The notes below the pieces were generated by a model that made no database searches, was not told where the DNA came from, and was given only the letters and a program-made list of their open reading frames with translations. Of a stretch of 64,000 bases of DNA, positions 46,569-64,000 are shown in pieces. How positions within the stretch are numbered: position 1 is the stretch's first letter; each line of letters starts with the position of its first letter. Source of the stretch: Bacillota bacterium (GTDB lineage: Bacteria; Bacillota; Clostridia; Acetivibrionales; JAEZXR01); assembly GCA_023419605.1 (NCBI GenBank), contig JAEZXR010000119.1, positions 1 through 64,000 on the forward strand. The letters are read 5' to 3'. Made by a program: the position numbers and the translations under genes.

Positions 46569-46814
46569 ATGAAAATTATGGATATGGTTATCGTAACCAT
46601 CAAATCACAGGAAGGGAAGCAGCTGATGGATATAGAAGTTCCGTTTGATATTACGGCTGAAGAACTGGCCGCCTCACTGGCAAACTATATGCAGGTGAAA
46701 GAGATAAAAGGTTTGAGGGCAGAGCCGCTAAAAAGAGTGCTCATGAATCATGAGACACTTAAGGAGGCCGGCGTGTGGGAAGGAAGCCATATAATCATTG
46801 AGGGTGCCCATTAG
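46569..46814 (+). CDS. esaB: EsaB/YukD-like small ubiquitin-fold T7SS protein
   Basis: About 80 aa directly after essC; beta-grasp-like pattern (VIVTIKSQEGKQLMDIEVPFDITAEEL). RBS GGAGGG. Confidence 0.6.
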   Translation: MKIMDMVIVTIKSQEGKQLMDIEVPFDITAEELAASLANYMQVKEIKGLRAEPLKRVLMNHETLKEAGVWEGSHIIIEGAH

Positions 46815-46900
46815 AGGCAGCAAACCAAAAAGTCATAAATTTCCGGTTAATTCTAGATACCCGGATCGAATAAAAACAAAAAATGAAAGGGTGGTACATA

Positions 46901-47197
46901 ATGGCAATCGGTACTATAAGGATTACTCCCGAGCAAATAAGGGATGAGGCTACAAAGTTGAAAGGTCTTTCAGACCAGCATGATGGAGTTTTTAAACAAA
47001 TGACAAACTTGATTAATGCACTGAGCAGTCAATGGGAAGGTGCTGCCATTGAAGCATTTTTGCAGTCCTTTACCAATGCGAAGACGGAACTGGAGAAATT
47101 CAGAAAATCTATTGACGTGTTCGAAAAGGACATGAGAGAGTCTGCAAGAATACTGGAAGAAACAGACAAGGCGCTGGGTACACAGTTAAAAAGGTAG
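46901..47197 (+). CDS. esxA: WXG100-family protein (EsxA-like secreted T7SS substrate)
   Basis: 98 aa helical hairpin with WXG (SSQWEGAAIEAF) near the centre. RBS AAAGGGTGG. Confidence 0.8.
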   Translation: MAIGTIRITPEQIRDEATKLKGLSDQHDGVFKQMTNLINALSSQWEGAAIEAFLQSFTNAKTELEKFRKSIDVFEKDMRESARILEETDKALGTQLKR

Positions 47198-47270
47198 TTT
47201 GCTTGTGGCAATGGCTGCACACCTGTGTGTAGCCATTGCGAACCTTATTAAGTTTTGAAAGGTGGATGCT

Positions 47271-47567
47271 ATGACACGCATTAAAGTGAATGCAACTGAA
47301 TTTAAGGCAGTAGCAAAGAAATTCAATTCCGCCGCTGAACGCTGCTCCAAGATTCAGGAAAAATTAAAAACTGCGTCCGATGATTTATTGGGGCATTGGA
47401 GCGGCAAGAGCAAGGAGGCCTTTTCGACCGAGTATAACACGCTGTATAAAAATATGTATAATTACAAAGACGTGTTGGAGTGCATAGCAAAGGATTTGGA
47501 TACTATTGCGGTACGTTTTGAAGAAGCCGACAAGAGTTTGAAAGATGGCATGGAAAAGACTACGTAG
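47271..47567 (+). CDS. WXG100-like protein (second Esx-type partner)
   Basis: 98 aa helical protein with HWSGKSKEAF (WxG) at mid-sequence. Confidence 0.65.
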   Translation: MTRIKVNATEFKAVAKKFNSAAERCSKIQEKLKTASDDLLGHWSGKSKEAFSTEYNTLYKNMYNYKDVLECIAKDLDTIAVRFEEADKSLKDGMEKTT

Positions 47568-47600
47568 AACAAATTGTGTGATATAGGGTGGAGGATGAGA

Positions 47601-49211: not shown

Positions 49212-49225
49212 TAGGAGGTAATCAG

Positions 49226-49630
49226 ATGAAAGAAGGTAGCTATGCAGTTTACAAAGGAAAGATTTATGAGGCTGACCTGTCAACAGATCCAAAGGAAAAG
49301 GGGCTGATCATGCTGATCTCATATGATGAATCGGACTTAAACAATGGTTTCGTCAGGGATAGGATATTTGGCATAATTAAAAATGTTAGAAGGGATGAAT
49401 TAACTACCGCATATTATCTTCAAACCTATGCTAAAGTTCAAGGCGTTAGTGTTAAAGTCACCGAGATACAGGGAGATAACATCTACATATATTCGAACGA
49501 TTACAATACTTTTCAGAAGTTGGGTATGGAGCAGTACGAGCCCCTTGTATACCATAAATGGATAAAGAAGGATGCTGTTGAGACAATGTGGGAGGAAAAG
49601 AAGCCGATTTGGGGTTTCATGAATGCATAG
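49226..49630 (+). CDS. Candidate immunity protein for toxin 1 (134 aa)
   Basis: Starts 15 nt after the toxin stop and has an AGGAGG RBS. Small acidic cytoplasmic protein; the call rests on position only. Confidence 0.45.
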   Translation: MKEGSYAVYKGKIYEADLSTDPKEKGLIMLISYDESDLNNGFVRDRIFGIIKNVRRDELTTAYYLQTYAKVQGVSVKVTEIQGDNIYIYSNDYNTFQKLGMEQYEPLVYHKWIKKDAVETMWEEKKPIWGFMNA

Positions 49631-49642
49631 AGAAGGTGCTGC

Positions 49643-49969
49643 ATGGTTCAACAATATGAAAATGAATTTTCTATAGGCTCAAAGGATGGAGAAATATTAT
49701 TTTACGAAGATAAAAGCTGCAAGATTAATTTTACAGTGATTGATTTCAGAGATTCCGTATTATGGATTGCCGTTGAAAAAACAGTGGAAAAAGCAAGCGA
49801 TGAAGAACGAAAGCTTTCAAAAGAGCAAAAATTCGAATTCTACAGGCGCTTGGCTTCCTACTTCAAATTACATGGCTTTAATAGCGGGATCTGTGTGGAT
49901 GACTTTAAAGAGGTCATTCAGGAGGATATGGAAAATATAGATTGTACCAGGGACATATTGGAACTATGA
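49643..49969 (+). CDS. Small hypothetical protein (108 aa), possible immunity or orphan module
   Basis: Tightly packed after the previous gene; no recognisable motifs. Confidence 0.4.
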   Translation: MVQQYENEFSIGSKDGEILFYEDKSCKINFTVIDFRDSVLWIAVEKTVEKASDEERKLSKEQKFEFYRRLASYFKLHGFNSGICVDDFKEVIQEDMENIDCTRDILEL

Positions 49970-49987
49970 TCATTAGCTGGAGGGAAT

Positions 49988-50539
49988 ATGGTAAAAGTAA
50001 CAACGGAACTGTGTGAAGACCAGATAGAAATGGGCTGGAAATATATAAGCTTTTCCAGGGAGAAAGAAAAATTAGTATTCTTAGTCGAGCCAATGATGAA
50101 TAAGGAAGATATCGCTTATATACCTGGTGATAATGCATGGAAAGAAAGCGCGCCCTATTGGGCCAAGGACAAAAAGGAAGAAATATTGCGTACAATAAAG
50201 TCGGTACCATGGAATCGCAGGATACAGTGGATAGAGGATGAGGATACGCTAATTACAGCGGTTCCGAGAGAAAAAAGTCCGTTATTGAAGGGCACCCTGG
50301 AAACAACGGAGGCAGGACAGGAGTTTTTGAAGTTGAATTTATTTGATCCCGGATCGGAAATACCCTTTGAACAGGTTCATGAGTTGTGGCGCGTTCTGGA
50401 GAAAAGATTTGCGGAGCAAGTCCGGGGTGAAGTTACAATTTACGCCAGTACAATCGTTGAAGGTAGTGTTTTTGAAGGCGTTTCGCTGCCTGTGTTGATG
50501 GAAAATAAAAACGCAGTTTTAACGATAGTAGGAAATTGA
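49988..50539 (+). CDS. Hypothetical protein (183 aa)
   Basis: Clean ORF with a GGAGGG RBS and acidic composition. Confidence 0.45.
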   Translation: MVKVTTELCEDQIEMGWKYISFSREKEKLVFLVEPMMNKEDIAYIPGDNAWKESAPYWAKDKKEEILRTIKSVPWNRRIQWIEDEDTLITAVPREKSPLLKGTLETTEAGQEFLKLNLFDPGSEIPFEQVHELWRVLEKRFAEQVRGEVTIYASTIVEGSVFEGVSLPVLMENKNAVLTIVGN

Positions 50540-50787
50540 GAACAGGGAAGTCGGTTATTTTATTTATTTCTTGTAAACCCGTAGTATCACGTTGTTAATA
50601 GTAAGAGTTACTGCTTTATTTCTTATGCTGTTAATTTTGCGATTTTAGCAGTTGTCAGAAGAGATGAAGGCAATAGCTTTATTTTATGATTCCATTTTTT
50701 AAAATATTTTCAATATAAAGGCTGTGAAGATGAACATTATTATTTTATATAAATGCAGTTCCAAAAAATGTAAAGGGGATGATAAAA

Positions 50788-51153
50788 GTGAACCGTTACC
50801 AGATAAAGTCCAGTATCAACGGAGCGAATAATGCCATTGGGCATATTCGGCAAGCAATCAATCATGCCGGGCAGGAAAGCGGTTTTTTGCGTGACGCCTC
50901 CGTGGAAATCCAGAATGGATATAAGGGTGCGTCAAGTGCCGGCATCAGTGAGAAAATCACAAGCTACAGCAGAGAAACAAGCAATCAATCCAATGAGATG
51001 TCCAACGAAATACGAAGCATACAGTCTATTGTCAGTGATCTTCAATATCTTGACAGACAGTTGGAAGAACAGGAAAGAAGGGAAAGAGAAGCACGGGAAA
51101 GAGCTGCAAGAGAAGCCAGAGAAAAAGCGGGAGGACTAAGCTATGGACGCTGA
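50788..51153 (+). CDS. Small helical protein with C-terminal RERE repeat (possible T7SS Lap-like accessory)
   Basis: GTG start 9 nt after GGGGA. About 120 aa helical protein ending in EEQERREREARERAAREAREKAGG. Overlaps the following TPR gene. Confidence 0.45.
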   Translation: MNRYQIKSSINGANNAIGHIRQAINHAGQESGFLRDASVEIQNGYKGASSAGISEKITSYSRETSNQSNEMSNEIRSIQSIVSDLQYLDRQLEEQERREREARERAAREAREKAGGLSYGR

Positions 51154-52498
51154 GGTGAAAAAACTAAGTGCAGAGGAATTAAATAAAATGGGACTGGTTT
51201 TGATGCAGGCCGAGCAAGTGGAGGAAGCATTAAAATACTTTAACAGAGCTCTTGAAGCGGATTCGGAATATTTACAATCCTATTATAATAAAGCAATGCT
51301 CTATTTAGTTACGGAAGAGTATGATGAAGCCCTGGCGTGCTATGATGAAATTTTGTGCAAAGATCCAAAACAAGGGGAAGCGTGCTATCATAAAGCCAAT
51401 CTGTTATTTTTCTACAAGGAAAATAGCAAGGAAGCGGTGGAGTTATATAACAAAGCCATTTGTCTAGGTGAAAAAAATGAAGACATTTACTATAACCTGG
51501 GATTATGCATGGAAGCTTCCGCTCTGAATGAAGAGGCACTTAAATGGGTTGAAAGAGCAAGCAGAATCAATGAAAAGCGAACCGATATTTTGTTAAAGAA
51601 ATCAGAATTGCTGACTTCATTGAAAAGATATGAAGAAGCCATCGAGTGCTATGATCAAGTGCTGATGATTGAATCGGATAACGAAGAGGCTTTCCATTTT
51701 AAGGCCATCCTTCTGGGAGAGACGAAGCGGACGGAGGAAGCTTTTACGGTATTGGATAAAGCTGCGGAAATCATTGGGGACAAGGCGATATTCGAATATG
51801 ACAGAGCCTTGCTTTATGAAAACCAGGGTCAATATGAAGAAGCTTTATCCGCCGTAGATAAGGGATTGGAGCTCGATGACCGCAATACCCTGCTGATCGT
51901 AAAGAAGGGATCACTGCTTGCCATGGCCGGCAATTATGAAGGAGCCAAGAACGTGTTCGATAAGGTTTCAGAAATAGAGCCGGAAAATGTCGAGGGAGAG
52001 TTCAATAAGGCAAGTATACATATTTTGTTGAAGGAATTTGAAGAAGCGGACAAGCTATTTGAAGCCATCCTCCAAAAGTGTCCGGATGAAAATCCCTATA
52101 AAATTAATTCCTATTATTACAAAGGCCTTGTGCTTCAAGGGGCGGGCAAATCCCAAGAGGCTAAAAAAGCCTATGAAACGGCGCTAACGAACTATAGTGT
52201 CCTTTCTCTTACTTACACGCACGATGCACAGCTTATGCTTCTGAAGGCAAATACCCTCAGGGACCTGCAGAGGTATCAGGAGGCGGAAGAGCTGTATGAA
52301 TATGTCATTGACCTGAATAAAGATATGGCGGAAGCGCATCTCATGCGGGCAAAAAATTATATTTACCTTGGGAAATTGAAGGAAGGGAAAAAGGAAATTG
52401 ATCTTGCATTGGCCATAAATCCGGCCTATAAGGGTATTGTTGAAATTGATGAAGAGTTAAAAAGGGTTTTTAACAGCCATGAATTTGGGAAGGTGTAA
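51143..52498 (+). CDS. Tetratricopeptide-repeat (TPR) protein
   Basis: About 12 tandem 34-aa repeats with W/LG/Y/A/F/A/P spacing (e.g. AMLYLVTEEYDEALACYDEIL). RBS GGGAGGA. Confidence 0.8.
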   Translation: MDAEVKKLSAEELNKMGLVLMQAEQVEEALKYFNRALEADSEYLQSYYNKAMLYLVTEEYDEALACYDEILCKDPKQGEACYHKANLLFFYKENSKEAVELYNKAICLGEKNEDIYYNLGLCMEASALNEEALKWVERASRINEKRTDILLKKSELLTSLKRYEEAIECYDQVLMIESDNEEAFHFKAILLGETKRTEEAFTVLDKAAEIIGDKAIFEYDRALLYENQGQYEEALSAVDKGLELDDRNTLLIVKKGSLLAMAGNYEGAKNVFDKVSEIEPENVEGEFNKASIHILLKEFEEADKLFEAILQKCPDENPYKINSYYYKGLVLQGAGKSQEAKKAYETALTNYSVLSLTYTHDAQLMLLKANTLRDLQRYQEAEELYEYVIDLNKDMAEAHLMRAKNYIYLGKLKEGKKEIDLALAINPAYKGIVEIDEELKRVFNSHEFGKV

Positions 52499-52791
52499 TG
52501 ATGGATAAGATTGAGATCGATATTTCAAAAATACGGGACACCGTGACATTGTACAGGAGTTGCAGGACTGAATTGGAGGAAATGCTTAAGGACCTGAATG
52601 CCAGCATTGAGAAGTTAAAAGCCAATTGGGAGGGGGAGGCTCAGAAGAGTTTTTTTGAAAATCATTTCCCGACATTTTCCGATAGCGTAGCGAAGCACAT
52701 AAGGATGATCGCTTTTCTTGAAGGAGAGCTCCAGTCCACGGCAAATGACTTCCAGGACCTGGACAGAGAGCTACGGTCAAAGCTCCTTTAA
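52498..52791 (+). CDS. WXG100-like small helical protein (NWEGEA motif)
   Basis: 97 aa; WxG lies between two helices. The start overlaps the TPR stop (TAATG). Confidence 0.6.
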   Translation: MMDKIEIDISKIRDTVTLYRSCRTELEEMLKDLNASIEKLKANWEGEAQKSFFENHFPTFSDSVAKHIRMIAFLEGELQSTANDFQDLDRELRSKLL

Positions 52792-52891
52792 AAATGTTTA
52801 TTGGCATAGTTAATGAAATAAGGCTATTAAAGCTTTTTAAGCAGTATGGAGGATGCCAGGTAGCCTGGCATGTAATGGGTGGGGGATGAGA

Positions 52892-54412
52892 ATGAGTGGA
52901 GCAGCTTTAAGCATGAACAGTTCAATCATAGGTATATCCTTCGACAGAATGAATGCAGCAAAGAAAAAAATATACAGAGCACAAGAAGAAGCACAAGGGG
53001 AGCGGGACAGCCTGTCAAGGGCCATCAGCAGTCTGCAGGTAGAGGATGGCAGGCTCAGGCAGAGAGCAGAAGCACTAAACAGGCTGCGCAGCAGGATAAA
53101 TAACCGAATGGCTGAACTGCAAAGAATGGGAAACCATGTAGAATATGCAGTGCAAAGATTCAAGGAAGTGGATAACCAACGGGCGCAGAAGATAAAGACA
53201 GGAGGCTGTGAAGTCAGAAAAGCTGTGGGTATTCCCAAGGAAAGTGGAATATTCGGCAATATCGTCAGCGGCTTGGTTTCTATTGTTGATAGGGGAGCAA
53301 GGGCATGGTACAATACAAATAAGGCAGTGATCGATGGGGCCAAGTTTGTCTTTGGCAAGGGATGGGAAGCTATAAAATATGGTGCAAAAGCGGTAGGAGA
53401 TTTCTATGAGGATCATAAGGTGCTGATCAACAACATCGCTACCATTGCACTGGAAGCAGCATCGATCGCGCTGACAGTGGCAGCCGTTACCGCTCTTTCG
53501 GTAACGGGTGTGGGATTGGTGGTGGCTGTGGGGATTGCAGCAGCCGGGATCGCATACAGTGCCAGCAACATCATCGATTCAGGCGTTAAAATCTATAATT
53601 ATTGTACAACCGGTGAGGAGAAAGGCTTTAACCCGCTGCAAAAGGGATTCCAGGCAGTGCTGGGCGACGAGCTGGGTGAGAAGGTATATAATTATGCCGG
53701 TATCGCTGTGGCTGTGGCAGATGTGGGCGCCGGGGCTGTCAGCATGCTAAAGGCGGCCAAGCAGGCAAAGACTGCCTTTAGCCTTACAAAATCGGTGAAA
53801 GAAGCGGGCAATGTTCTAAAAGAGTTCGGGCAAAAAGGGGTACAGCAACTGAAGAATACGGCAAAGGAGATGATCGAGAGCGGGAGCCAGCTGTTTAAAA
53901 AGTCTGAAAGTTTGGTAGATGCGGCTACAGGGACCAGGTTCTCCGATAAAATGCTGGATTTTGGCAAGGTTGATATGCCTGTGGTGAAGGAGACCCCGGT
54001 ACAAAGTAACTTTAAGGCTGTCATGAATGGGTCGGATACGGGAGTAAGTAAGGTTAACAGCAAAATAGAGATTGTTGATAAAAATAATAAAACTTTCAAA
54101 ATAAATGATTGGAGTGACTACCCTGACGATTATGTTCCTTTGCCAGATAAAAATAAAACTTGGGAGTTACTTGAGGGAGATGCCTATAACGATGCAAGAA
54201 AAGCAGCCAATAATGCAAATGCTAAAATTACTAAGCAAAATCCTGACATCAGAGCAAACGAACTTGAGATTCATGAGGTAGAACCTGTTAAATTTGGGGG
54301 AAGTCCGACTGACCTTGCTAATAAAGTAGGCATTCAAGGAAAGGCACATAGAAAATATGTTACCCCTTGGTGGAATAGAATCAGGGATGCTGTCAAAGAG
54401 GAACTGAAATAA
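52892..54412 (+). CDS. T7SS-associated polymorphic toxin 2: same N-terminal module as toxin 1, C-terminal HNH/beta-beta-alpha-Me-type nuclease domain
   Basis: N-terminal 300 aa are paralogous to 47601-49211. The C-terminus LEIHEVEPVKFGGSPTDLANKVGIQGKAHRKYVTPWWN fits the H..E..P...GG.....N.......H pattern of an HNH-like nuclease. Confidence 0.72.
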   Translation: MSGAALSMNSSIIGISFDRMNAAKKKIYRAQEEAQGERDSLSRAISSLQVEDGRLRQRAEALNRLRSRINNRMAELQRMGNHVEYAVQRFKEVDNQRAQKIKTGGCEVRKAVGIPKESGIFGNIVSGLVSIVDRGARAWYNTNKAVIDGAKFVFGKGWEAIKYGAKAVGDFYEDHKVLINNIATIALEAASIALTVAAVTALSVTGVGLVVAVGIAAAGIAYSASNIIDSGVKIYNYCTTGEEKGFNPLQKGFQAVLGDELGEKVYNYAGIAVAVADVGAGAVSMLKAAKQAKTAFSLTKSVKEAGNVLKEFGQKGVQQLKNTAKEMIESGSQLFKKSESLVDAATGTRFSDKMLDFGKVDMPVVKETPVQSNFKAVMNGSDTGVSKVNSKIEIVDKNNKTFKINDWSDYPDDYVPLPDKNKTWELLEGDAYNDARKAANNANAKITKQNPDIRANELEIHEVEPVKFGGSPTDLANKVGIQGKAHRKYVTPWWNRIRDAVKEELK

Positions 54413-54431
54413 AAAGGAAGGATGTAGATGC

Positions 54432-54851
54432 ATGGATTATAAAAGTAATAAATACTTTAAAGATCTTGATTTTGGTAATCATCATCCTATTACAATTGAA
54501 GATTTGAACGAAGTCGAAGATGCTGTGGGGATTAGTTTCCCACAGCAGTACAGAGAATTTATGCTATTTTCTAATGGTGCAGTTGGTGAAATTGGTAACA
54601 GCTATTTAACCATATGGGAACTTGAAGATGTTCAGGATTTTTATGAAGATTGCTGTGAAGGTGATTTGGCTAATATAGTTCTATTTTCATCTGATGGTGC
54701 AAAGGTCGGCTATGGGTTTGATAAAAGCAAAAGTGGAACTATTGTTTCAGTACCGTTAGATTCACTTGAAATGGACTATGTAGAATTTTGTGCCAATACA
54801 TTTGAGGAATTTATGGAATATTTATATAATTATAACTGGGATGAAGAATAG
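54432..54851 (+). CDS. SUKH/SMI1-KNR4 family immunity protein
   Basis: ISFPQQYREFMLFSNG motif (FP..Y..FL..NG) and about 140 aa size; lies directly after the toxin with an AAAGGAAGG RBS. Confidence 0.75.
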   Translation: MDYKSNKYFKDLDFGNHHPITIEDLNEVEDAVGISFPQQYREFMLFSNGAVGEIGNSYLTIWELEDVQDFYEDCCEGDLANIVLFSSDGAKVGYGFDKSKSGTIVSVPLDSLEMDYVEFCANTFEEFMEYLYNYNWDEE

Positions 54852-54888
54852 CTTTAGAAATTATCAACCGAAGGGTGAAGGTGCTAAT

Positions 54889-55137
54889 ATGAGTAGTGAA
54901 AAACAGCATAACGCATACGATGAAGCAAAAAAAAATTGTAACATTGCAAATAGGCAATTAAGAAAAAATGACCTAACTTTAAAAGGATTGCAAATACACG
55001 AAATCGAGCCTATAAAGCTTGGGGGCAGTCCTACTGATACATCAAATAAAGCTTTTCTTCCTCGTGATAAACACGCAAAGGTAGTTGTATGGTGGAACAA
55101 AAAGATAAGAGAAGTTAGGAAAAGTATGGGGGAATAA
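54889..55137 (+). CDS. Orphan HNH-like toxin C-terminal cassette (82 aa)
   Basis: NAYDEAKKNCNIANRQLRKNDLTLKGLQIHEIEPIKLGGSPTDTSNKAFLPRDKHAKVVVWWN is homologous to the last ~85 aa of toxin 2. Own RBS AAGGGTGAAGG. The longer ORF from 54790 overlaps the upstream immunity gene. Confidence 0.5.
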   Translation: MSSEKQHNAYDEAKKNCNIANRQLRKNDLTLKGLQIHEIEPIKLGGSPTDTSNKAFLPRDKHAKVVVWWNKKIREVRKSMGE

Positions 55138-55139
55138 GA

Positions 55140-55553
55140 GTGGATAATAAGTACGGTAATCTGTTAGACAAAATTGAGTTGAATCTTCCCTGCTCCATGG
55201 AAGCTATTAAAGAAGTAGAAAAAAATCTTGGATTTACTTTTCCAAAGGATTACTTGGACTTTCTTCTAACAAGTAACGGGGGCGAAGGCTGGGTGGGAGA
55301 AGATTCGTATCTGTCACTATGGAAAGTAGATGAAATTGTGGCTTTAAATGAAGCATATGAGGTAAGTGAGTTTGCTCCAGGCCTTATACTATTTGGCTCA
55401 GATGGAGGGTTAGATGCCTATGGGTTTGATATAAGGGATGAGAGTACGGCAATAGTTGAAATACCATTTATAGGTATGGATTTAAGGGAAGTAAAGAATT
55501 GTGGAAACACTTTTGTGGAGTTCTTAGAGTATTTATTACACAGAGGTTTTTAA
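55140..55553 (+). CDS. SUKH/SMI1-KNR4 family immunity protein
   Basis: FTFPKDYLDFLLTSNGGEG motif; 137 aa. Confidence 0.75.
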   Translation: MDNKYGNLLDKIELNLPCSMEAIKEVEKNLGFTFPKDYLDFLLTSNGGEGWVGEDSYLSLWKVDEIVALNEAYEVSEFAPGLILFGSDGGLDAYGFDIRDESTAIVEIPFIGMDLREVKNCGNTFVEFLEYLLHRGF

Positions 55554-55556
55554 TCC

Positions 55557-55979
55557 GTGTGGGAAAAACTATTGTCGGATATTAGAAAAGTCGAGGAAAA
55601 ATACGGGGATTCCCTTAATACTCCAGCGTCAAACGAGCAAATCGAGCTTTTAAAAAAAATAGTTAAGGAAAAGTTTGGTCACGTTTTACCTGAGCAATAT
55701 GTCAATTTTTTAAAAACGGTTAATGGGCTTGAATTTAACGGGTTTATATTCTATGGAGTTGATAGTTCATTGCTTGAGGTTCAAAATAATCAAACAGCTT
55801 ATGGATATGTTGATACAAATGAAATTTGGTACGAAAATGAACATCAAAAGCAATATATGTTTTTTGGAGAAAGTAATATAAGCGGGGATTGCTTTGATTT
55901 ATCAAACGGAGTTTATGTTGAACTTGATAACCCATTAGGGACATTAATGTATACATTTAATGATTTTAACTCTATATAG
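55557..55979 (+). CDS. SUKH-superfamily immunity protein (third copy)
   Basis: HVLPEQYVNFLKTVNGLEFNG motif; 140 aa; GTG start 3 nt after the previous stop. Confidence 0.65.
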   Translation: MWEKLLSDIRKVEEKYGDSLNTPASNEQIELLKKIVKEKFGHVLPEQYVNFLKTVNGLEFNGFIFYGVDSSLLEVQNNQTAYGYVDTNEIWYENEHQKQYMFFGESNISGDCFDLSNGVYVELDNPLGTLMYTFNDFNSI

Positions 55980-56470: not shown

Positions 56471-57553
56471 ATGCATATCAAAAAAGTATTTCTTATAATA
56501 GCAGCCTGTGTGCTGATACTGTTATTATGTGTAAATGTATTTCAATTTGTATTTTGGAGTGGAAAAGCCAAACAACTGGAGGCCTCTTATACGGAACAGA
56601 TAGGAGAACTGGAGGAAAGGCTCGGAAGTATTGGACCCATGGCTCAGGCGTGGACTGTAGCCAAACAGGTAACACCGGGCCAAAAAATCACACAGGAAGA
56701 TCTGAAACCCATTCAAGTGTTGAAAAAATCTATGGAAGATGCATACATAACAAATCCAAAAGAAATCCTCGGTAAATTCTATAAAATATCTATTCTTCCG
56801 GGAACGCCTATCACAAAAGGTCTGGTTATGGAAGAAAAAATCAAAAACTCATTGAGACAGTATGATGTTGTAGCCAATACGATTCCCATCGGGCTGAAGG
56901 CCGGAGATTATATTGATTTCAGGTATCTGATGCCCAAAGGCGAAGATTATATAGCGATGACGCACAAACGGGTGGAAGCGGTACATACAAAAACCGTAAC
57001 TCTTCACCTGTCGGAAGAAGAAATCCATGTTTATCAAAGCATGCTGGTAGACTACTTTTTAAAGGAAGGCAGCTTGCTTTATATGACAAAATATCTAGAA
57101 CCGGGTGTTCAGGAAGCAGCAGAAACCTACTATCCAGTCGATGAAAATATTTTAAACGTAATGTTGATCGATCCAAATGTAATTGATAAGCTTGAGGCTG
57201 CTGTCATTAAAGGCAGCAGGGATATATTAAACACGACAGATAAAAGTATTGAAGATCTCATCAGAAGCAAGATAAGCACCGGCCGGGCATCGATTCAGGG
57301 AAGTGTAGATGCTGCAAACGCTGTATATTGGGATAGATTGGAAAAGGCAAATAAAGAGAAGGATTTACAGCAAGGGGAAGTTACAAGTGTACCACCCCAG
57401 CAGCAACCGCAAGCAGAGGCAAAACAATCTCAAACTCCTGTGACGGGCAATCCATCGGCCAACACTTCAGCACCACCGGCAAAGACGGAACCACAGGAGA
57501 ATGGAAATACAAATAATGGGAAACTGATTATGCAGGAAGGGATCGTAGAATGA
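56471..57553 (+). CDS. CpaB/RcpC-like Flp-pilus assembly protein (N-terminal TM helix, SAF-like domain, Gln/Pro-rich C-terminal tail)
   Basis: TM helix, then a segment VAKQVTPGQKITQEDLKPIQV..ILGKFYKISILPGTPITKGLV typical of the SAF domain of CpaB. Low-complexity PPQQQPQAEAKQSQTP tail. Confidence 0.6.
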   Translation: MHIKKVFLIIAACVLILLLCVNVFQFVFWSGKAKQLEASYTEQIGELEERLGSIGPMAQAWTVAKQVTPGQKITQEDLKPIQVLKKSMEDAYITNPKEILGKFYKISILPGTPITKGLVMEEKIKNSLRQYDVVANTIPIGLKAGDYIDFRYLMPKGEDYIAMTHKRVEAVHTKTVTLHLSEEEIHVYQSMLVDYFLKEGSLLYMTKYLEPGVQEAAETYYPVDENILNVMLIDPNVIDKLEAAVIKGSRDILNTTDKSIEDLIRSKISTGRASIQGSVDAANAVYWDRLEKANKEKDLQQGEVTSVPPQQQPQAEAKQSQTPVTGNPSANTSAPPAKTEPQENGNTNNGKLIMQEGIVE

Positions 57554-58125
57554 TTGTAGTATGTCTGGGCCATGTTGATAAAAGACCGATATTGTATTCA
57601 CTGATGAAGCTTCTGCAATCCTTTGGAGATGTTGCAGTTGTGACGCGAAACAGACAGTTGCAGCGTTTGCTGGAGAGCAAGAGCTCTTCAGGGTATTTCA
57701 ATAATATTTTTGTAGCGATTTCGGACGCGGTGCCGGAAGCGGCGATCTTAGAAGCAGGATGCGCGCCGGGGGATTTTGACCATATAATTTATGACAGCAT
57801 CGATGTGCTGCCCGATCGCTATGATCTCTGTATTCATAGCAAAAGCTTTGGATTGATGGAGTACGAAAGTGAAGTTCTCGGATATAAAAGCGATATTGTA
57901 CAATACAATTTTGTCTATGATGGCAAGACGGAGAAGGGATGTATTAATATTCCCGTTGCATTCCCCTTAATAAAAAGCGTGGAGGAGTTTGAGGCAAGAA
58001 AGCTTTTAATTCCTATACAATGTGACGTAATGCAGAAAAGTTTGTCAAGTTTAACGGCACCACAGCTTAAGATTACTGAAAAGGATGCATTGAAAATCCT
58101 CAAGAGGAAGTGGAATGAGAAATGA
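57550..58125 (+). CDS. Hypothetical protein (191 aa) within the Tad-like operon
   Basis: Translationally coupled (ATGA overlaps) on both sides; no motif recognised. Confidence 0.5.
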   Translation: MIVVCLGHVDKRPILYSLMKLLQSFGDVAVVTRNRQLQRLLESKSSSGYFNNIFVAISDAVPEAAILEAGCAPGDFDHIIYDSIDVLPDRYDLCIHSKSFGLMEYESEVLGYKSDIVQYNFVYDGKTEKGCINIPVAFPLIKSVEEFEARKLLIPIQCDVMQKSLSSLTAPQLKITEKDALKILKRKWNEK

Positions 58126-58901
58126 AGATAGCAGTAATGTCACCTTCAAGGGACCAGGGAATTACAACGGTCAGCGTTTTGTTGGGCTTAACCCTGGCAC
58201 AGACCCAAGGGCAAAGCGTGTGCCTTACACATTCCGGAATTGACAGTTTTTCTTTAGATTCCTATTTGGGCATATCAAAATACAATGATAAAACAAAGTC
58301 CATCACCCAGATCATTCGACTGCTAGAGACCCATGCAATATCCGGTAACGATATCGCTGACTATTGTACGAAGATTGAAAATAATTTTGAGCTGCTGAAT
58401 ACGGCAGCTCCCGATGTAAACGGAGAGGAAAGCGCAAAGTTGTTAAAATTTGTGATTCCGAACCTGAATCATGATATTGTTATAACGGATGTAAAGACAG
58501 AGCTATGGGAGGAGACAACCCAGCAAACCCTGCAAACGGCAGATGTAATAATCATCGTTTTGTCTCAGAATATACAAACGGTGAAAAAACTTGAAGCGTG
58601 GAAAGCATCGGAATATTATGCTGCCATACATGGAAAGCCGACGATGTACATTATAAATAAATTTGACGGGTATGTATCCTCTTTTCGTGATTTTACGAAG
58701 CTAGCAGGCTTGAAGCACATACAATGCTGTAAAATATCATACTCCCCCTATATAAAAAAGACAGCGAACCTGGGGAAATTACATACTTTATTGCCCTATA
58801 TTATTGAAAGAGATGTGAGGGTATGTGAGCTTAATAATGACCTTAAGGAGTGTATGCAAGTAATTATGGCGCACATGGGTAAGCGGTGCAATTGGAGGTA
58901 A
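58122..58901 (+). CDS. Degenerate ParA/MinD-fold protein (TadZ/CpaE-like, Walker A not conserved)
   Basis: Begins MKIAVMSPSRDQGITTVSVLLG where ParA-type proteins carry KGGVGKTT. Size and position upstream of the CpaF-like ATPase match TadZ/CpaE. Confidence 0.5.
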   Translation: MKIAVMSPSRDQGITTVSVLLGLTLAQTQGQSVCLTHSGIDSFSLDSYLGISKYNDKTKSITQIIRLLETHAISGNDIADYCTKIENNFELLNTAAPDVNGEESAKLLKFVIPNLNHDIVITDVKTELWEETTQQTLQTADVIIIVLSQNIQTVKKLEAWKASEYYAAIHGKPTMYIINKFDGYVSSFRDFTKLAGLKHIQCCKISYSPYIKKTANLGKLHTLLPYIIERDVRVCELNNDLKECMQVIMAHMGKRCNWR

Positions 58902-58907
58902 GTTCAC

Positions 58908-60746
58908 ATGACAAACATAGTACTCACCATCATCACCCTGCTGGGAGGCGGGACTGCGCTGTACTTGCTCTACATCAAAGCCAAAAAGGAGCGGCCGGAT
59001 TATAAACCCTCAAATACTTTCACCATGGAAAAACTGTTGGACATTGTAAGGAACAGTCTCCTGGACCTGGTGAAGGATGAGAGCTTTGAAGGCCTGGAAG
59101 ATGAAGAGGAGTTTGAGAGTATATACAAACGTAAAGCAAGGATACAGGAAGCGATACGTAATTGTGTGCATGGCATTGACTCCGCGAAAATAATTGTTCA
59201 GGATTTGATCAGAAACATTATAGCGGAGAAGCTTCCGGATGAAGCCTCTGTACTTCAGTTAATTGATTTTAATTCCCATGATCTGGAGCCGCGAATAAAA
59301 TTTGAGATCCTCATGTACTTCTTTAAAAAGTATTATGGCAAGGATGCTTTGGCCGAATTAATCGAAAAATATTATCTGGACCGAGAGCGGTATGAGATTG
59401 AGGAAAAGCTGGAACCAAGCTATTTAATTACGGAAGACGACATCAATGATATTTACGCAAAGGAATCTATTGAATTGAATTACAGTGTAATGATCGATAT
59501 CGTAACGGTGTTGATATACCAGCGGTACAAAGGGTTTGGCATTGTGGATACCATCAGGGAAATGAATATAAACGGATTTAACTGTGGTACTTCCGGGTCC
59601 ATATTAAGCAACGTGGGTTCCGTGGAAATGGATGTCCCAAGAGCGCCGAGATCCGTATGGTTGTATTTCAGAGGGAAATATATTCATTTAAAATTTTTAA
59701 ACTTTGGGACAGAAGAAGAATTAAGAAGAGTGGTGCAGCTGCTTTGCAGGTACAACAATCCCGGACCCTTAACGGAAAAGCGGGGATATCTTGTAAATAC
59801 AATGTATGATAAATCCCGTGTTCTGGCCTTACGGCCACCGGCTTCCGAATATTGGGCGGTTTTTGTCCGGAAGTTTTCACTGTCGGATCAATCTACGGAA
59901 GCACTTATAAATAAGCCTTATACAAAGAATGCCTACCTTGCCGTTAATCTTTTGATCTATTTGATGAAGTGCGAAGTTACCTGTGCTGTCACCGGCAGGC
60001 AGGGTTCGGGAAAGACCACACTCATGGCGTCACTGGTTAAATTTATAGACCCGCGGTATACGATACGTGTTTTGGAAATGGCCCCGGAGCTCTACCTCAG
60101 GGAATTATACCCGGAAAGAAACATACTTTCCGTCCAGGAGACGGACTATGTATCGGCTACTGCTTTACAGGATGCTTTGAAAAAATCCGATGCAGCCGTA
60201 TCCATGGTGGGGGAGGTAGCTACAGACTCCATTGCAGCGCGTATGATACAGCTGGGCCAGGTGGCCTCATTGTTTACCATATTCTCACATCATGGAAAAA
60301 CACCCAAGGATCTGGTTTACTCCTTAAGGAACTCTCTGGTCAATGCAGGCGGGTTTACCAATATGCTGACAGCAGAGCAGCAGGTGGTGGATGTAGTGAA
60401 AGTGGACGTGCATTTGGATTATACGCCGGATGGGAAACGGTACATAGAAAGGATTTCTGAAATTATTCGACTGGATGAAGCCATACCGTATCCCAGGTAT
60501 GATGAGAATGATCCCGTAAATTCAATCAATGCCATCACGAAGGAATATTATACCCGGCAAACGGACCGGCAAACCTTCATTACCAGAGATATCCTTACCT
60601 ATGATGTGAAAACACATACCTATCATACTGCAGAATGGTTTTCAGAAAAGTTGACAGATTATATGCTGCACAATATATCGGAGCAGAATGCCAGCGATTT
60701 TAAGGAGTTTATTGTGAACCACTGGAAGGGAGTTGAGAATTTATGA
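58908..60746 (+). CDS. CpaF/TadA-type secretion ATPase (GspE/VirB11 superfamily) with ~230-aa N-terminal extension
   Basis: Walker A VTGRQGSGKTTLMASL, Asp box, Walker B and His box of T2SS/T4P-type ATPases in the C-terminal 380 aa. GGAGG RBS. Confidence 0.85.
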   Translation: MTNIVLTIITLLGGGTALYLLYIKAKKERPDYKPSNTFTMEKLLDIVRNSLLDLVKDESFEGLEDEEEFESIYKRKARIQEAIRNCVHGIDSAKIIVQDLIRNIIAEKLPDEASVLQLIDFNSHDLEPRIKFEILMYFFKKYYGKDALAELIEKYYLDRERYEIEEKLEPSYLITEDDINDIYAKESIELNYSVMIDIVTVLIYQRYKGFGIVDTIREMNINGFNCGTSGSILSNVGSVEMDVPRAPRSVWLYFRGKYIHLKFLNFGTEEELRRVVQLLCRYNNPGPLTEKRGYLVNTMYDKSRVLALRPPASEYWAVFVRKFSLSDQSTEALINKPYTKNAYLAVNLLIYLMKCEVTCAVTGRQGSGKTTLMASLVKFIDPRYTIRVLEMAPELYLRELYPERNILSVQETDYVSATALQDALKKSDAAVSMVGEVATDSIAARMIQLGQVASLFTIFSHHGKTPKDLVYSLRNSLVNAGGFTNMLTAEQQVVDVVKVDVHLDYTPDGKRYIERISEIIRLDEAIPYPRYDENDPVNSINAITKEYYTRQTDRQTFITRDILTYDVKTHTYHTAEWFSEKLTDYMLHNISEQNASDFKEFIVNHWKGVENL

Positions 60747-62749
60747 TGATGTTCATCATGGTAGCAGTTATTGCGACCCTTTTCTTGGCTTCCGGCATGA
60801 TTCTCCTGTTTGGCAATACCAAAGGAAACCGCAAAAAGACCGTATCCAAAAAGAACACCAAAAAGCCGAATTCGCTTATTTCTACGGCTACGTACAATAA
60901 GGCTTATGACATGCTCAATAATACCTTCTTAACCCGAAGCGGATTACGAAAACTCTTCGACAGATTGGCTGAGCTATCCATTTACAACGCAGAAGATTTA
61001 AAAATCATAGCCGTCAGGTTTTATGTGCTGTCAGTGGCCGCATCCATTACAACAGTGGTAGTAGGCGCTTTTACATTCAAGGATTTATTTTCTACTTTAT
61101 TATGCGTTGCTTTTGCCTTTGTAGTAAAGAACACCCTCATCGACAAGCAGGTGGACGGCATACACTTTAAACTGTTGAAACAACTGGCGGTGGCTATAAG
61201 CTCCCTGCGGCAAAATTATCTACGGTATAACTCCATACCGGATGCCGTGTCCGAAACCGAAGCCGGACCTTTGGTCAAACGGGCTTTTGAGGAAATCCAT
61301 CTGATTTTGACTTCGGAGAATGATGAAATAAGGCTGCAAGAGTTTTACGCGTCGACTCCCTTTAAACTTCTTCAAACCCTGGCAGGTGTATGTTTTAAGT
61401 TGAATTCCAGCGGGGATGTGCAGTTGTATGACGGTACATCCAACTTTATCCAGGCCATGACCATGATGAGCTCGGAAATAAATCTTGAAATAAGGCGGAT
61501 CTCCTTGCAAAGGGCAAGATTTGGTTTCCTGGAAATATTGCCGCTGGCACCCATCGCCGCTGTGGGAGTGATAGAAAGGTTCTTTAGCGGTGTAATCCCG
61601 GGAACTTCCATCATATACCACGGAGTCATGGGATACCTGACGAGAATCTTAATCGTATTGAGCGCTATGGTGGGCTACACGGTGATTGTAAAAATAAACA
61701 GTGCTGTAACCATAAAAGCGGATGATCGTTCGGAATGGATAAAGAAGCTGTTGACTCGAACTGAATTCAAGCAATTTATTCAGGATATTTTGCCGAAGAA
61801 ATCAAAAAAAATAACGCAGAAAACAAAATTAATAAAAAGTGCCTTGAGCAGAATCGATATTTACCATTTGTATGCAAGAAAAGTGATCTATGCCTCCATT
61901 GCACTGGTGGCTTCCATAATAGCAGCTTTCTTCATCGTCAATCTGAGCAGAGATTTTATCTATCGAAATGTAGCGGAATTATCACTGATCGGAGGGGAAA
62001 ATCTGACGCAAAAGGATATTGAAACCAGAAGAAAAATGGATGCTATTTATCTATCGGGACAAAAGCTGAGTGAAAAGCAGACCACTCAGTTTGTAGAATC
62101 CTATCTGCCGAAGCTGCAGGAATATGATAAGCAGGCACAGGTAAGAAGGCTGCGCATGAAGTATGATGCATACTACGGGACTCATTTCCAGTGGTGGATG
62201 CTGCTGGCCTGCTACCTCATATCGATAGGTGCCTGGTTTATGCCGGAAATGACGTTAAAGGCAAGACGATGGTTTATACGCACAGAGGCAGAGGAAGACG
62301 TTTTACAGCTTCAAACCATCATTGCAATACTGATGAACACAACCTGTGACACGCTGGACATCCTCTACTGGATGGAACGGCAGAGCAGAGTACATAAGCA
62401 TGCCTTGCTGGCCGCCTACCATGAGTATCCCTCCAATCCGGAGCTTTCACTGAACCGGCTGAAGGCAAAGGCTTCTCTCCCGGAGTTTAAGCGAATGATC
62501 GACAAGCTGATTCTGACCATTCATCAGATTTCTGTTGCAGAAGCATTCAGTGATCTAATTACCGAAAGGGATCACATATTACGCATCAGAGAAATTGCAC
62601 AGGTTACATCCATTAACAAGAAAAGGCAGGCCGTGAGCCCTTTGTCAATGCTTCCCTTAGGAATTACAGCCTTTGGTTACATATTATTGCCCTTAGGAAT
62701 TTTGGGCTTTCAAGAATTCACAAATGCATTATCCAATTTTGGCCACTAG
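60743..62749 (+). CDS. TadB/TadC-like polytopic membrane platform protein (duplicated T2SS-F-type domains, 668 aa)
   Basis: Two blocks of 3 TM helices separated by cytoplasmic helical regions. The start overlaps the ATPase stop (ATGA). Confidence 0.65.
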   Translation: MMMFIMVAVIATLFLASGMILLFGNTKGNRKKTVSKKNTKKPNSLISTATYNKAYDMLNNTFLTRSGLRKLFDRLAELSIYNAEDLKIIAVRFYVLSVAASITTVVVGAFTFKDLFSTLLCVAFAFVVKNTLIDKQVDGIHFKLLKQLAVAISSLRQNYLRYNSIPDAVSETEAGPLVKRAFEEIHLILTSENDEIRLQEFYASTPFKLLQTLAGVCFKLNSSGDVQLYDGTSNFIQAMTMMSSEINLEIRRISLQRARFGFLEILPLAPIAAVGVIERFFSGVIPGTSIIYHGVMGYLTRILIVLSAMVGYTVIVKINSAVTIKADDRSEWIKKLLTRTEFKQFIQDILPKKSKKITQKTKLIKSALSRIDIYHLYARKVIYASIALVASIIAAFFIVNLSRDFIYRNVAELSLIGGENLTQKDIETRRKMDAIYLSGQKLSEKQTTQFVESYLPKLQEYDKQAQVRRLRMKYDAYYGTHFQWWMLLACYLISIGAWFMPEMTLKARRWFIRTEAEEDVLQLQTIIAILMNTTCDTLDILYWMERQSRVHKHALLAAYHEYPSNPELSLNRLKAKASLPEFKRMIDKLILTIHQISVAEAFSDLITERDHILRIREIAQVTSINKKRQAVSPLSMLPLGITAFGYILLPLGILGFQEFTNALSNFGH

Positions 62750-62797
62750 CTACATAAGAATCAACCGGTAGAAAGTTACGGAAGGGAGGGGAACTGC

Positions 62798-62893
62798 ATG
62801 AACAGTTACTTTATAGGGGCGATTGTTGCGTTTGGTGCTGCGATTGGAGCAGGAGTCCTATTTATGATACTTAGAAAAAGAGCAGGGGGGTGA
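62798..62893 (+). CDS. Unannotated 31-aa hydrophobic peptide (MNSYFIGAIVAFGAAIGAGVLFMILRKRAGG)
   Basis: Below the ORF-track size cut-off. Strong RBS GAAGGGAGGGG 7 nt upstream of the ATG. Single glycine-zipper TM helix (GxxxGxxxG) with a basic C-terminus. Confidence 0.4.
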   Translation: MNSYFIGAIVAFGAAIGAGVLFMILRKRAGG

Positions 62894-62996
62894 GATATAG
62901 ATTCATCACAACCGGAAAGGAGAGGGACGAAAAAACTATTTATGTGGGTAAATAATAAACAATTAAAATAAAGAAAAGGAATGGAGTGAGGAAACA

Positions 62997-63563
62997 ATGG
63001 AAGGTGAATTAGGTTCGGGCGCGAGGATTGCCATTGCGCTGATTGTTGTGGGCGTAATCATAGGGATTATATTCGTAATATTGGGTTTCACAAGAGGTGC
63101 TACCAACCAGGGTGTTGGAACGGTACAAAATGCAATGGACCAGATGCAGAGTTCAACCTTTGATGATTATGACCAGCAGATCATGAGTGGGACGCAGGTA
63201 AGTTCAGCCATCAAATTGTTTGAGGGGAGGCCCATTGGTGTTATCGTTATTACAGCATTGTCAAAATCTTCGTTATATGGTATAAATTATGGTGCTCGAT
63301 TTCAAGATACAAGTGCTACCAACAATCATATTAGCTTTACCTCCACTTTTGATGGCGCTGGATTGGCAAAAGCAAATACAGCAGATTCATTCTACACCGA
63401 AAATCTTTTTGTCAGTGGTGGATCAATGGCTTTTAATATGAATACAATGGATACGAAAAAGTCAGGAACCCCTGAGTTTATTCGGCCCACAGCTAAATTT
63501 AAGGCTGAACTTATAAAGGATACCTCCGGCACTATAACCGGAGTATGCTTCACTCAGCAGTAA
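62997..63563 (+). CDS. Membrane-anchored secreted protein (188 aa), paralog of the next gene; possible pilin/pseudopilin-like subunit
   Basis: N-terminal MEGELGSGARIAIALIVVGVIIGIIFVILG helix, then FDDYDQQIMSGTQVSSAIKLFEG, a motif shared with the 63641 ORF. RBS GGAGTGAGG. Confidence 0.55.
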   Translation: MEGELGSGARIAIALIVVGVIIGIIFVILGFTRGATNQGVGTVQNAMDQMQSSTFDDYDQQIMSGTQVSSAIKLFEGRPIGVIVITALSKSSLYGINYGARFQDTSATNNHISFTSTFDGAGLAKANTADSFYTENLFVSGGSMAFNMNTMDTKKSGTPEFIRPTAKFKAELIKDTSGTITGVCFTQQ

Positions 63564-63640
63564 CCGTGTATTGTTCGTGTAGAGGAGATTCTCCAGACTC
63601 TCCTCTATAGCATAGAATACATAAAAGGGAGGCAATCGCC

Positions 63641-64000
63641 ATGGAATCGGAAGCGGTCAGCAGTGTAAAAATTGCCATACACCTAATGGTGATCAGCACG
63701 TTGATCTTTACCATCCTCTTGACGGTGAATATAGCAAAACCCTATATCTTTGATATGATCCTTGGGGTTGTAAATGTGACGGAGGAAGAGAAGGCAAAAC
63801 AGTTCGATGATTACGATCAAAAATGGGTGTCCGGGACTAAAGTGCTGCGTGTGTTGAAATTATATGAAAATACCGGATTTGGCGTTGTATACGGGACAAA
63901 AAAGACCCAATCCTCCGGGAATTACGCCGTGAACTTTGGAGGCGTATTCAAGGAGTCGGATACCTATGCTCAGGGTTATCGGATATTGAACTTCACAGCC
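63641..64000 (+). CDS. Membrane-anchored paralog (partial, continues beyond the window end)
   Basis: MESEAVSSVKIAIHLMVISTLIFTILL helix, then FDDYDQKWVSGTKVLRVLKLYEN. RBS AAAGGGAGG. Confidence 0.5.
   Translation, partial: MESEAVSSVKIAIHLMVISTLIFTILLTVNIAKPYIFDMILGVVNVTEEEKAKQFDDYDQKWVSGTKVLRVLKLYENTGFGVVYGTKKTQSSGNYAVNFGGVFKESDTYAQGYRILNFTA

Follow-up and report, generated by a model that had tools for sequence, protein, structure and literature searches.

Tad/Flp pili, the type IVc systems known from Aggregatibacter (tad), Caulobacter (cpa) and Bifidobacterium breve (tad2003), have a Flp pilin of ~50-80 aa with a G/XXXXEY motif, the TadE and TadF proteins, and the TadV/CpaA peptidase. Their genes also occur beside type VII secretion system (T7SS) loci: as surveyed by Garrett, Higginson and Palmer in 2024, "Tad pilus genes" invariably adjoin T7SSg and T7SSh in Paenibacillus (PMC11217815). 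The functional meaning of this arrangement was left open by these authors, who noted that the co-location may be coincidental. Here, we analyzed a 64-kb stretch of contig JAEZXR010000119.1 from a Bacillota bacterium (referred to as the window), in which positions 56471-64000 of the + strand carry the available portion of a Tad-like operon next to a T7SS island. Flp, TadE/TadF and TadV/CpaA are all missing from this locus. The locus is a real, very divergent Tad/CpaF-type system, and probably a filament machine with a new class of pilin, represented by its FDDYDQ protein G.

The conserved operon and its proposed major subunit

The open reading frames (ORFs) A to H are all present on the + strand from 56471 to the window end, and the operon description given by an initial annotation of the window is accurate at the sequence level, coordinates included:

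56471-57553, + strand: A, membrane-anchored SAF-domain protein, CpaB/RcpC-like, 360 aa (alternative ATG at 56441)
57550-58125, + strand: B, conserved cytoplasmic protein with no classified fold, 191 aa (22/22 loci)
58122-58901, + strand: C, ParA/MinD-like protein at the TadZ/CpaE position, 259 aa (weak CbiA matches, no Walker A lysine)
58908-60746, + strand: D, membrane-anchored CpaF/TadA-like secretion ATPase, 612 aa (CpaF in the PDB, TIGR03819)
60743-62749, + strand: E, polytopic platform protein of GspF/PilC fold, 668 aa
62798-62893, + strand: F, single-helix micropeptide with a basic C-terminal tail, 31 aa (GGAGG ribosome-binding site)
62997-63563, + strand: G, FDDYDQ protein, pilin-like, proposed major filament subunit, 188 aa (AlphaFold2 model, conservation, tandem copies)
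63578-63609, + strand: stable RNA hairpin directly 3' of G, with no T-run behind it
63641-64000, + strand: H, diverged FDDYDQ paralogue cut at the window end, 189 aa in full (complete in contig L001 at 10645-11214)

Overlaps of 4 nt between stop and start codons at A/B, B/C and D/E indicate that A to E form one translationally coupled operon. When 185,579 reference genomes were searched with the alignment of the platform protein, 21 loci were recovered, all belonging to Cohnella, Paenibacillus or Vallitaleaceae. The order A-B-C-D-E-G (one to four copies)-I/J-K-L-M-N is invariant among syntenic loci, and the succession of ATPase, platform, major subunit and five minor subunits is kept in 22 loci from two Bacillota classes as well as in plasmid and metagenome sister clades. 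The next 10 kb downstream of the window were read from L001, a 109.8-kb metagenome contig with an identical G, where G is followed by H (189 aa), I (145 aa), a Cu_amine_oxidN1 protein (334 aa), J (144 aa), K (125 aa), L (138 aa), M (148 aa) and N (320 aa), and then by a toxin-like protein of 570 aa with its 129-aa partner and a giant ALK_LTK_GRD protein.

The ATPase D is most closely related in the PDB to CpaF (8rkd/9e24, E-value 3.5e-10, residues 298-523), while VirB11, PilT and FlaI (0.13 for the latter) score far worse. TIGR03819 TadA is its best NCBIfam model (9.3e-10), as compared with FlaI (1.2e-4) and ComGA (0.021). Its Walker A motif is intact (GRQGSGKT at 363), the Walker-B-type glutamate (VGE) and the His-box histidine align with those of CpaF, and NCBI names its orthologues CpaF/TadA. 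The initial annotation had assigned D to the CpaF type, as is the case, and had given it an N-terminal extension of ~230 aa, which is overstated: since residue 298 of D aligns with residue 217 of CpaF (9e24), the excess is ~80 aa. The truly unusual feature of D is rather its predicted N-terminal transmembrane anchor. A hydrophobic segment followed by basic residues starts all 22 orthologues and also the plasmid and metagenome relatives, and such an anchor is, to our knowledge, unusual for the CpaF/TadA ATPase family. The platform protein E has the size of TadB and TadC combined and a GspF fold, and some of its orthologues are annotated as TadB/GspF by independent annotators.

Protein A, the first gene product of the conserved core in 22/22 loci, scores just over the cutoff of Pfam SAF (23.4 bits, cutoff 21) and matches TIGR03170 FlgA_cterm under that model's cutoff (E-value 3.8e-8). 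The equivalog model TIGR03177 CpaB gives 8.6e-6 and 25 bits for a cutoff of 71; by these scores, A is CpaB-like and not a CpaB equivalog. Sequence and profile searches of the PDB with A, C and E return nothing meaningful. Orthologues of B are found in 22/22 loci at 38-43% identity with an invariant N-terminus (GxxDKRP..Y..K.L..GDV), and B has zero matches in Pfam, NCBIfam and the PDB. That B could be a truncated ParA-like paralogue of C was rejected, as hhalign reports no relation between them. For C, a ParA fold with an ablated Walker A had been proposed. The P-loop lysine is indeed absent, the motif being replaced by S-P-x-R-x-Q-G-x-T-T (SPDRRQGGTT; SRDQGITT in the window). The fold itself is less secure: CbiA, the only recurrent Pfam family, is matched by 9 of the 22 orthologues with a best E-value of 0.011, which is weak. 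C is also devoid of a receiver domain, and its plasmid homologue is annotated ParA.

The FDDYDQ motif occurs in G and H only when all six frames of the window are read, and these two membrane-anchored proteins are paralogues, as initially noted, sharing 35% identity. The AlphaFold2 model of G (predicted local distance difference test, pLDDT, of 88) comprises a 50-residue helix (residues 7-56) and a small β head and, as modelled, is a classical pilin "lollipop". Its 123 close homologues, all labelled "hypothetical", stem from Paenibacillus, Cohnella, Vallitalea and metagenomes, and a profile search with G in a metagenome library reports 768 cluster representatives at E<=1e-3. The ~85 N-terminal residues are near-invariant (MEGELGSGARIAIALIV...TNQG...FDDYDQ..SGTQV..AIKLFEG.P), as are the ~40 C-terminal ones (FVRPTAKFLAELIKDxTGTIVGICFTQQ), while the central part, with its many indels, is hypervariable. 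Loci contain one to four tandem copies of G; within a genome, the copies are 98-100% identical over residues 1-85 and 81-94% over the C-terminal 44 residues, and their centres are 38-50% identical in three of the four tandem loci and 88% in L015. Tandem variable copies, near-invariant termini and the downstream hairpin are traits of a major filament subunit. Searches of Pfam, NCBIfam and the PDB leave G unmatched, none of the Pfam families is matched repeatedly by 135 diverse homologues, and structure comparison finds no significant neighbour for its head.

In each of the proteins G to N, a short polar leader precedes a single hydrophobic helix at the N-terminus, the G leader ending in a conserved Gly8 (MEGELGSG). 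hhalign relates G/H to I/J over their full length (96% probability) and G/H to K over the first ~57 residues (94%), a common leader and helix module that carries different heads; by analogy, a shared N-terminal module with different heads would be as in pilin sets. L, M and N were also compared and dropped as relatives of G, since hhalign finds nothing past the common architecture of a single N-terminal helix. The proposal that the system handles the FDDYDQ proteins rather than a classical pilin is supported, with one refinement: they are its most likely assembled substrate, and with their long N-terminal helix and head they are read as pilin-like themselves, as a new pilin class rather than non-pilin cargo.

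Directly behind G, the 86-nt G-H spacer with its hairpin (63560-63645) folds at -28.5 kcal/mol (z-score -3.75). Behind the last G-type gene, 22/22 loci have a structured spacer (z-scores from -1.7 to -6.3; the equivalent spacer in L002-L023), and none is found between tandem G copies. The hairpin probably attenuates transcription or stabilises the mRNA and thereby sets how much major subunit is made relative to the minor ones; such a placement is what one expects if the major subunit is strongly expressed and the minor ones behind it are made at a low level. H is classed with these minor subunits on account of its position behind the hairpin and its divergence along the whole sequence. In a consensus scan for promoters and terminators, the promoter matches were no better than those of shuffles.

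The micropeptide F, located between E and G, belongs to a less constant part of the locus. Hydrophobic peptides of ~30 aa with a basic tail occupy the E-G gap in 9 of the 22 loci (the window, L003, L004, L005, L010, L015 and L020-L022), and the gap is only 64-140 nt long in the 13 others, where F is missing. The gap of the distant metagenome locus L029 also encodes a peptide (7806-7940), of 44 aa and of opposite charge topology, with a basic N-terminal leader and a hydrophobic core. The micropeptide sequence is not conserved, and the basic part is C-terminal in the window and in Cohnella, N-terminal in L029. Neither a G/XXXXEY motif nor a match with Pfam Flp_Fap is found for F. An extra soluble protein of 161-183 aa, OB-fold-like by eye, is encoded between the platform and major-subunit genes in L017-L019 (~12000-12550) and L029 (7331-7816); the 161-aa gene of L029 was considered as a small TadV-like peptidase and rejected, its product being soluble and non-hydrophobic.

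Distribution and the association with type VII secretion

The T7SS island that precedes the operon in the window comprises the following genes:

41897-46483, + strand: EssC-like ATPase with FHA and three FtsK domains (Pfam FtsK_SpoIIIE 3.4e-72, FHA 7.6e-13)
46557-46814, + strand: YukD (Pfam 3.5e-6)
46883-47197 and 47262-47567, + strand: two WXG100 proteins (Pfam 2.6e-14 and 4.4e-16)
47574-55979, + strand: toxin/immunity modules with paralogous toxin-like proteins of 545 and 519 aa, a TPR protein, a third WXG100 protein and three SUKH/SMI1_KNR4 genes

The T7SS markers, namely three FtsK_SpoIIIE domains with FHA, YukD and three WXG100 proteins, all lie within 41897-52791. Among the island genes scanned (41.9-56 kb), none matches EssA, EssB or EsaA, and the system is therefore a non-canonical T7SS variant. 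A third toxin paralogue with an immunity-like gene follows the operon (L001 15480-17596). Toxin/immunity paralogues thus stand on both sides, and the Tad-like operon therefore sits inside the T7SS island. The three toxin-like paralogues (545 aa at 47574-49211 and 519 aa at 52853-54412 in the window; 570 aa at 15480-17192 in L001) are 54-62% identical in their N-terminal parts, contain central glycine-zipper-like hydrophobic segments and have no Pfam match; each is followed by small immunity-like genes (three SUKH genes, or proteins of 134 and 129 aa).

An EssC-like gene is located within 10 kb of the operon in 16 of the 21 reference loci, as it is in the window, on the downstream side in Paenibacillaceae (after an M23 peptidase and small helical proteins) and on the upstream side in Vallitalea. 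The adjacency that the initial annotation noted in the window is therefore not the chance of one genome; it belongs to a conserved and already published association (PMC11217815). The "Tad pilus genes" of that survey very probably represent the same gene family; its supplements hold no accessions or terms that tie them to the family of the FDDYDQ locus. Across loci, EssC identity is 26-39%, whereas that of the ATPase D is 66-69%. The flanks fetched for pBsph, pART37, L025 and L029 contain no T7SS genes, and those of P. psychroresistens have sugar-transport genes downstream and no EssC-like gene. The link with the T7SS is frequent and not obligatory, because EssC is far more diverged than the ATPase and because plasmid and some chromosomal relatives have no T7SS nearby.

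Besides the distant metagenome versions L025 (with a 717-aa ATPase) and L029, sister systems are found on 27 large plasmids of Paenibacillus, Lysinibacillus, Butyrivibrio, Clostridium and others, such as pBsph (L027, NC_010381.1) and pART37 (L028, NZ_CP043762.1); no phage record carries the platform. Behind the plasmid platform gene, a G-like gene of 155-160 aa contains a Y.YD...SG..V motif. The plasmids are large "non-mobilizable" Bacillota plasmids, in which the sister systems adjoin replication and partition genes. Their order is a REC-like 483-aa protein, SAF, a 241-aa protein, ParA-like, TadA-like ATPase, platform, the G-like 155-160-aa protein, a protein of 118/128 aa, M-like and N-like, the M-like gene being supported by blastp in pART37 only, and the operons are followed by an SLH protein and a DUF5704 protein of >1000 aa. 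Their interpretation as pXO16-type conjugation machinery was dropped, as a review describes pXO16 as a pCW3-like type IV secretion system. The Vallitalea and plasmid versions come with a protein of 449-486 aa whose N-terminus is receiver-like (L018 2140-3486 on the - strand, L027 4186-5637, L028 7847-9307); by eye, the P-loop region of the Vallitalea type is degenerate, and a hydrophobic helix lies at its C-terminus. This receiver-like/ParA-like protein, absent from the window, recalls the TadZ-like TsfV of T7SSf.

Several other genes recur around the operon. A ~195-aa lipoprotein-like gene lies directly 5' of the SAF gene in 17 loci (family 9; ~5000-5700 within L003-L023), and L025 has a 188-aa gene in the same position (6587-7153); the window has no such gene, and SUKH immunity genes abut the operon there. 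Giant secreted ALK_LTK glycine-rich proteins (PF12810) adjoin the operon in three clades (L001 19333-20567, a gene of 1937 aa; L020 15919-21561; L025 1-5272), in Cohnella cholangitidis directly after gene N; the system may use them as cargo or adhesins. A gene for an M23 peptidoglycan peptidase is located 3' of N in 13 syntenic loci, mostly of Paenibacillaceae with one Vallitaleaceae metagenome-assembled genome (e.g. L010 15966-16931), and precedes the operon in L025 (5293-6438); this neighbour fits local cell-wall remodelling for a trans-wall structure. The Cu_amine_oxidN1-domain protein inserted between the duplicated I and J (334 aa, L001 11731-12735) is restricted to the lineage of the window, and a second gene of this type (376 aa) lies at L001 18206-19336. 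The 64-kb window contains no tRNA genes.

Proposed mechanism and competing explanations

From the gene content and its conservation, we infer a scheme for polymerisation, for the roles of B, C and H to N, for subunit processing and for biological function. The CpaF-like hexameric ATPase D, tethered by its own N-terminal helix, would drive the fused GspF-fold platform E, which would pull single-helix subunits from the membrane and polymerise a filament across the thick cell wall. G would be the main subunit, with its ~50-residue N-terminal helix in the filament core and its variable central loops on the surface, and the hairpin would keep it in stoichiometric excess. H, I/J and K, which carry the N-terminal module of G, together with L, M and N, would serve as low-abundance minor subunits priming or tipping the filament. 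The SAF protein A could form an extracytoplasmic collar, like CpaB/RcpC in Tad systems, and B and C, the latter devoid of the P-loop lysine, may act as non-catalytic, TadZ-like positioning or scaffold factors. The short, conserved, mostly acidic and glycine-ended subunit leader (MEGELGSG|A) would either be cut by a peptidase encoded elsewhere or be used uncut. The filament would likely function in adhesion or in cell-cell contact serving the neighbouring T7SS toxin system. A fuller proposal, in which this is a type IV filament of an undescribed pilin superfamily that depends on a novel peptidase or on none, and in which it is the wall-spanning or contact partner of a variant T7SS in Bacillota, is doubtful.

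Several observations weigh against a filament machine. No filament has been observed. The Flp, TadE/TadF, N_methyl and archaeal pilin profiles match none of G to N, in which neither a canonical G/XXXXEY site nor a Glu5 is found, and G, I/J, K and L have acidic rather than basic leaders. Pfam T2SSE reports 18.3 bits for D, below its cutoff of 24.9. E, described initially as a fused TadB/TadC, has the expected size and fold and yet returns no match with Pfam T2SSF, nor does hhalign detect an internal TadB/TadC duplication between its N- and C-terminal halves. B and C are, judging from their sequences, essentially unclassified. Lastly, a Flp pilin and a prepilin peptidase are absent from the window and from ±10 kb of the 22 syntenic loci. 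The initial claim that the window lacks both thus holds, and it extends to the 10 kb downstream (L001), where further single-helix proteins are encoded and neither Flp, TadE/F nor a peptidase is found; a Flp and a TadV just outside the window, which would have made this a standard Tad locus, are thus not seen. Profiles of Flp, TadE/F and peptidase A24 do not match G to N (TadE/TadF not even at E<=1), so that neither Pfam nor NCBIfam classifies the FDDYDQ proteins as TadE/TadF, and the TadE/TadF profiles likewise match none of the 135 diverse G homologues. Within ±10 kb of any scanned locus, there is no small polytopic ORF with a GxGD motif. The peptidase negative covers the window, the 10 kb downstream and ±10 kb of the loci, the rest of the genome not being searchable. 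It is not fully cleared for the window itself: among the multi-pass ORFs there, TerC, BioY and an amino-acid permease were identified, and those at 13111-13968, 20889-23360, 27830-30295 and 32909-34771 were not scanned, although these, at 285-823 aa, are mostly far larger than peptidases of 140-260 aa.

One alternative is an ordinary Tad system in disguise, with F as a Flp-like major pilin, G to N as TadE/TadF-type pseudopilins and a TadV/ComC peptidase elsewhere in the genome. F does lie just 5' of G to N behind a strong ribosome-binding site, micropeptides recur in nine loci and in L029, where the 44-aa peptide resembles Flp by its basic leader and hydrophobic core, and the genes for prepilin peptidases often lie apart from the Tad loci, as they do in Bifidobacterium and in MSH systems. 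However, F is missing from 13 loci whose E-G gap leaves little space, neither its sequence nor its charge topology is conserved, it lacks the processing motif and the Flp_Fap match, no TadE/TadF profile matches the downstream proteins, and it is G that looks like a major subunit, by its tandem copies of variable sequence, its extreme terminal conservation and its hairpin. Such a disguise is quite improbable. That G to N would not form a filament at all, and would be bitopic proteins of a static envelope complex, for example for surface display or wall remodelling, with ATPase and platform acting only in its insertion or regulation, accords with the missing processing site and peptidase, with acidic leaders that make topology ambiguous, with a G head devoid of a pilin-like structural neighbour and with the large surface proteins (ALK_LTK_GRD, SLH, DUF5704, Cu_amine_oxidN1) recurring beside the loci. 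Polymer subunits nevertheless typically show the kind of mosaic conservation and of variable tandem copies that G has, and all characterised pairs of a CpaF/PilB-type ATPase and a GspF-fold platform build helical fibres of single-helix subunits, as is well established (PMC6668835), which makes a static complex very improbable.

The position of the operon inside the island also raises the question of whether the two systems are one apparatus, the operon encoding a short wall-spanning pseudopilus or contact fibre, of the type known from T2SS or Com, that the adjacent T7SS needs to deliver its LXG-like toxins to neighbouring cells. This would account for the frequent EssC-like neighbour, the paralogous toxin/immunity modules flanking the operon on both sides, the invariable Tad adjacency of T7SSg/h (PMC11217815) and the M23 peptidoglycan hydrolase adjoining the operon in 13 loci and L025. 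The gene order, moreover, mirrors that of comG, a wall-spanning pseudopilus operon. An obligate pseudopilus is difficult to reconcile with pBsph, pART37, L025, L029 and P. psychroresistens, whose flanks have no such T7SS genes, and the difference in identity between the ATPase and EssC argues against strict co-evolution; the authors of the T7SS survey themselves call the co-location possibly coincidental (PMC11217815). We regard this explanation as unlikely. An archaellum-like rotary motility filament acquired from Archaea is exceedingly improbable. One G homologue is labelled "FlaG/FlaF family flagellin (archaellin)" by the Joint Genome Institute (JGI), the multiple paralogous subunits, with their variable regions, are reminiscent of archaellin gene sets, and Tad systems derive from archaeal Epd-like pili; but D is nearer to CpaF/TadA than to FlaI in both the NCBIfam and the PDB comparisons, and general scans report no profile or PDB match to FlaH, FlaX or FlaCDE, for which no direct search was made.

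Comparison with described systems

A divergent Tad/CpaF-type machine, if confirmed, would add to the superfamily of type IV filaments (TFF) a well-defined and widespread branch, present on Paenibacillaceae and Vallitaleaceae chromosomes, on large plasmids of Bacillales and Clostridia, and in metagenomes. This branch would break TFF "rules", having no Flp, Glu5, G/XXXXEY or locus-encoded peptidase, an anchored ATPase and a fused platform, and would be a test case for the essentials of pilus assembly. The ~185-aa FDDYDQ family, now annotated as "hypothetical protein", would gain a testable role as major filament subunit. Located in the T7SS toxin islands of three distant lineages, the locus would provide a handle on toxin passage across two thick walls and on dedicated contact structures. 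Should it be a T7SS partner, it would couple two secretion nanomachines never shown to cooperate. Of the TFF features, the locus has the CpaF-type hexameric ATPase and the polytopic platform of GspF/PilC fold and lacks a dedicated A24 peptidase; G follows the subunit scheme with its Gly8-ended leader, its helix 7-56 and its β head, and departs from it with an acidic leader and no pilin profile match.

The Tad genes beside T7SSg/T7SSh resemble the present ones by their occurrence in Paenibacillus, and in Vallitalea for the related T7SSi, and by the accompanying YukD, WXG100 and LXG-like toxins (PMC11217815). That survey notes the adjacency only, without analyzing the pilin, the absence of a peptidase or the Tad-like components, and it describes TsgC and TshC without FHA, whereas the EssC-like proteins here carry this domain (by Pfam in the window, by eye elsewhere). 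The Myxococcus Kil system, cited in the same survey, is likewise a Tad-derived machine tied to contact-dependent killing; the analogy is a functional one, for a possible cooperation with T7SS toxins. Kil is diderm, with a secretin and canonical Tad components. The ComG pseudopilus shares the operon logic of ATPase, platform, major subunit and then four to five minor subunits, in a monoderm cell with thick peptidoglycan to cross. It differs in that the ATPase of the present locus belongs to the CpaF clade and not to ComGA/PilB (ComGA at 0.021), no KGFTLxE leader is found, and no ComC, ComEA or ComEC is encoded near the locus. Archaeal Epd-like pili, the sister group of Tad in TFF phylogenies (PMC6668835), and archaella have in common with it subunits without Glu5 and several subunit paralogues. 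Unlike these, the present system matches no archaeal pilin or archaellin profile, its ATPase is nearer to CpaF, and it has SAF and ParA-like accessories of bacterial type.

The Tad/Flp systems remain the closest. CpaF/TadA is the nearest ATPase, the SAF protein is CpaB-like, a weakly ParA-like protein stands at the TadZ/CpaE position, the GspF-fold platform has the size of TadB plus TadC, a set of larger minor subunits ends the operon, and there is no secretin, as in monoderm Tad systems. In contrast with Tad/Flp, where TadB and TadC are separate T2SSF proteins, the platform here is a single fused chain, missed by Pfam T2SSF; the ATPase is anchored by a transmembrane segment, the TadZ-like protein has neither the P-loop lysine nor the receiver domain, a conserved protein of 190 aa is added, and the major subunit has ~185 aa with a globular head. 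The presence of Tad genes beside these T7SS loci was already published, and the ATPase was already annotated CpaF/TadA. What is new is the anatomy of the system, the FDDYDQ family with its probable role as major subunit, the absence of Flp, TadE/F and prepilin peptidase as a conserved trait, the membrane anchor of the ATPase, and the sister clades on plasmids and in metagenomes.

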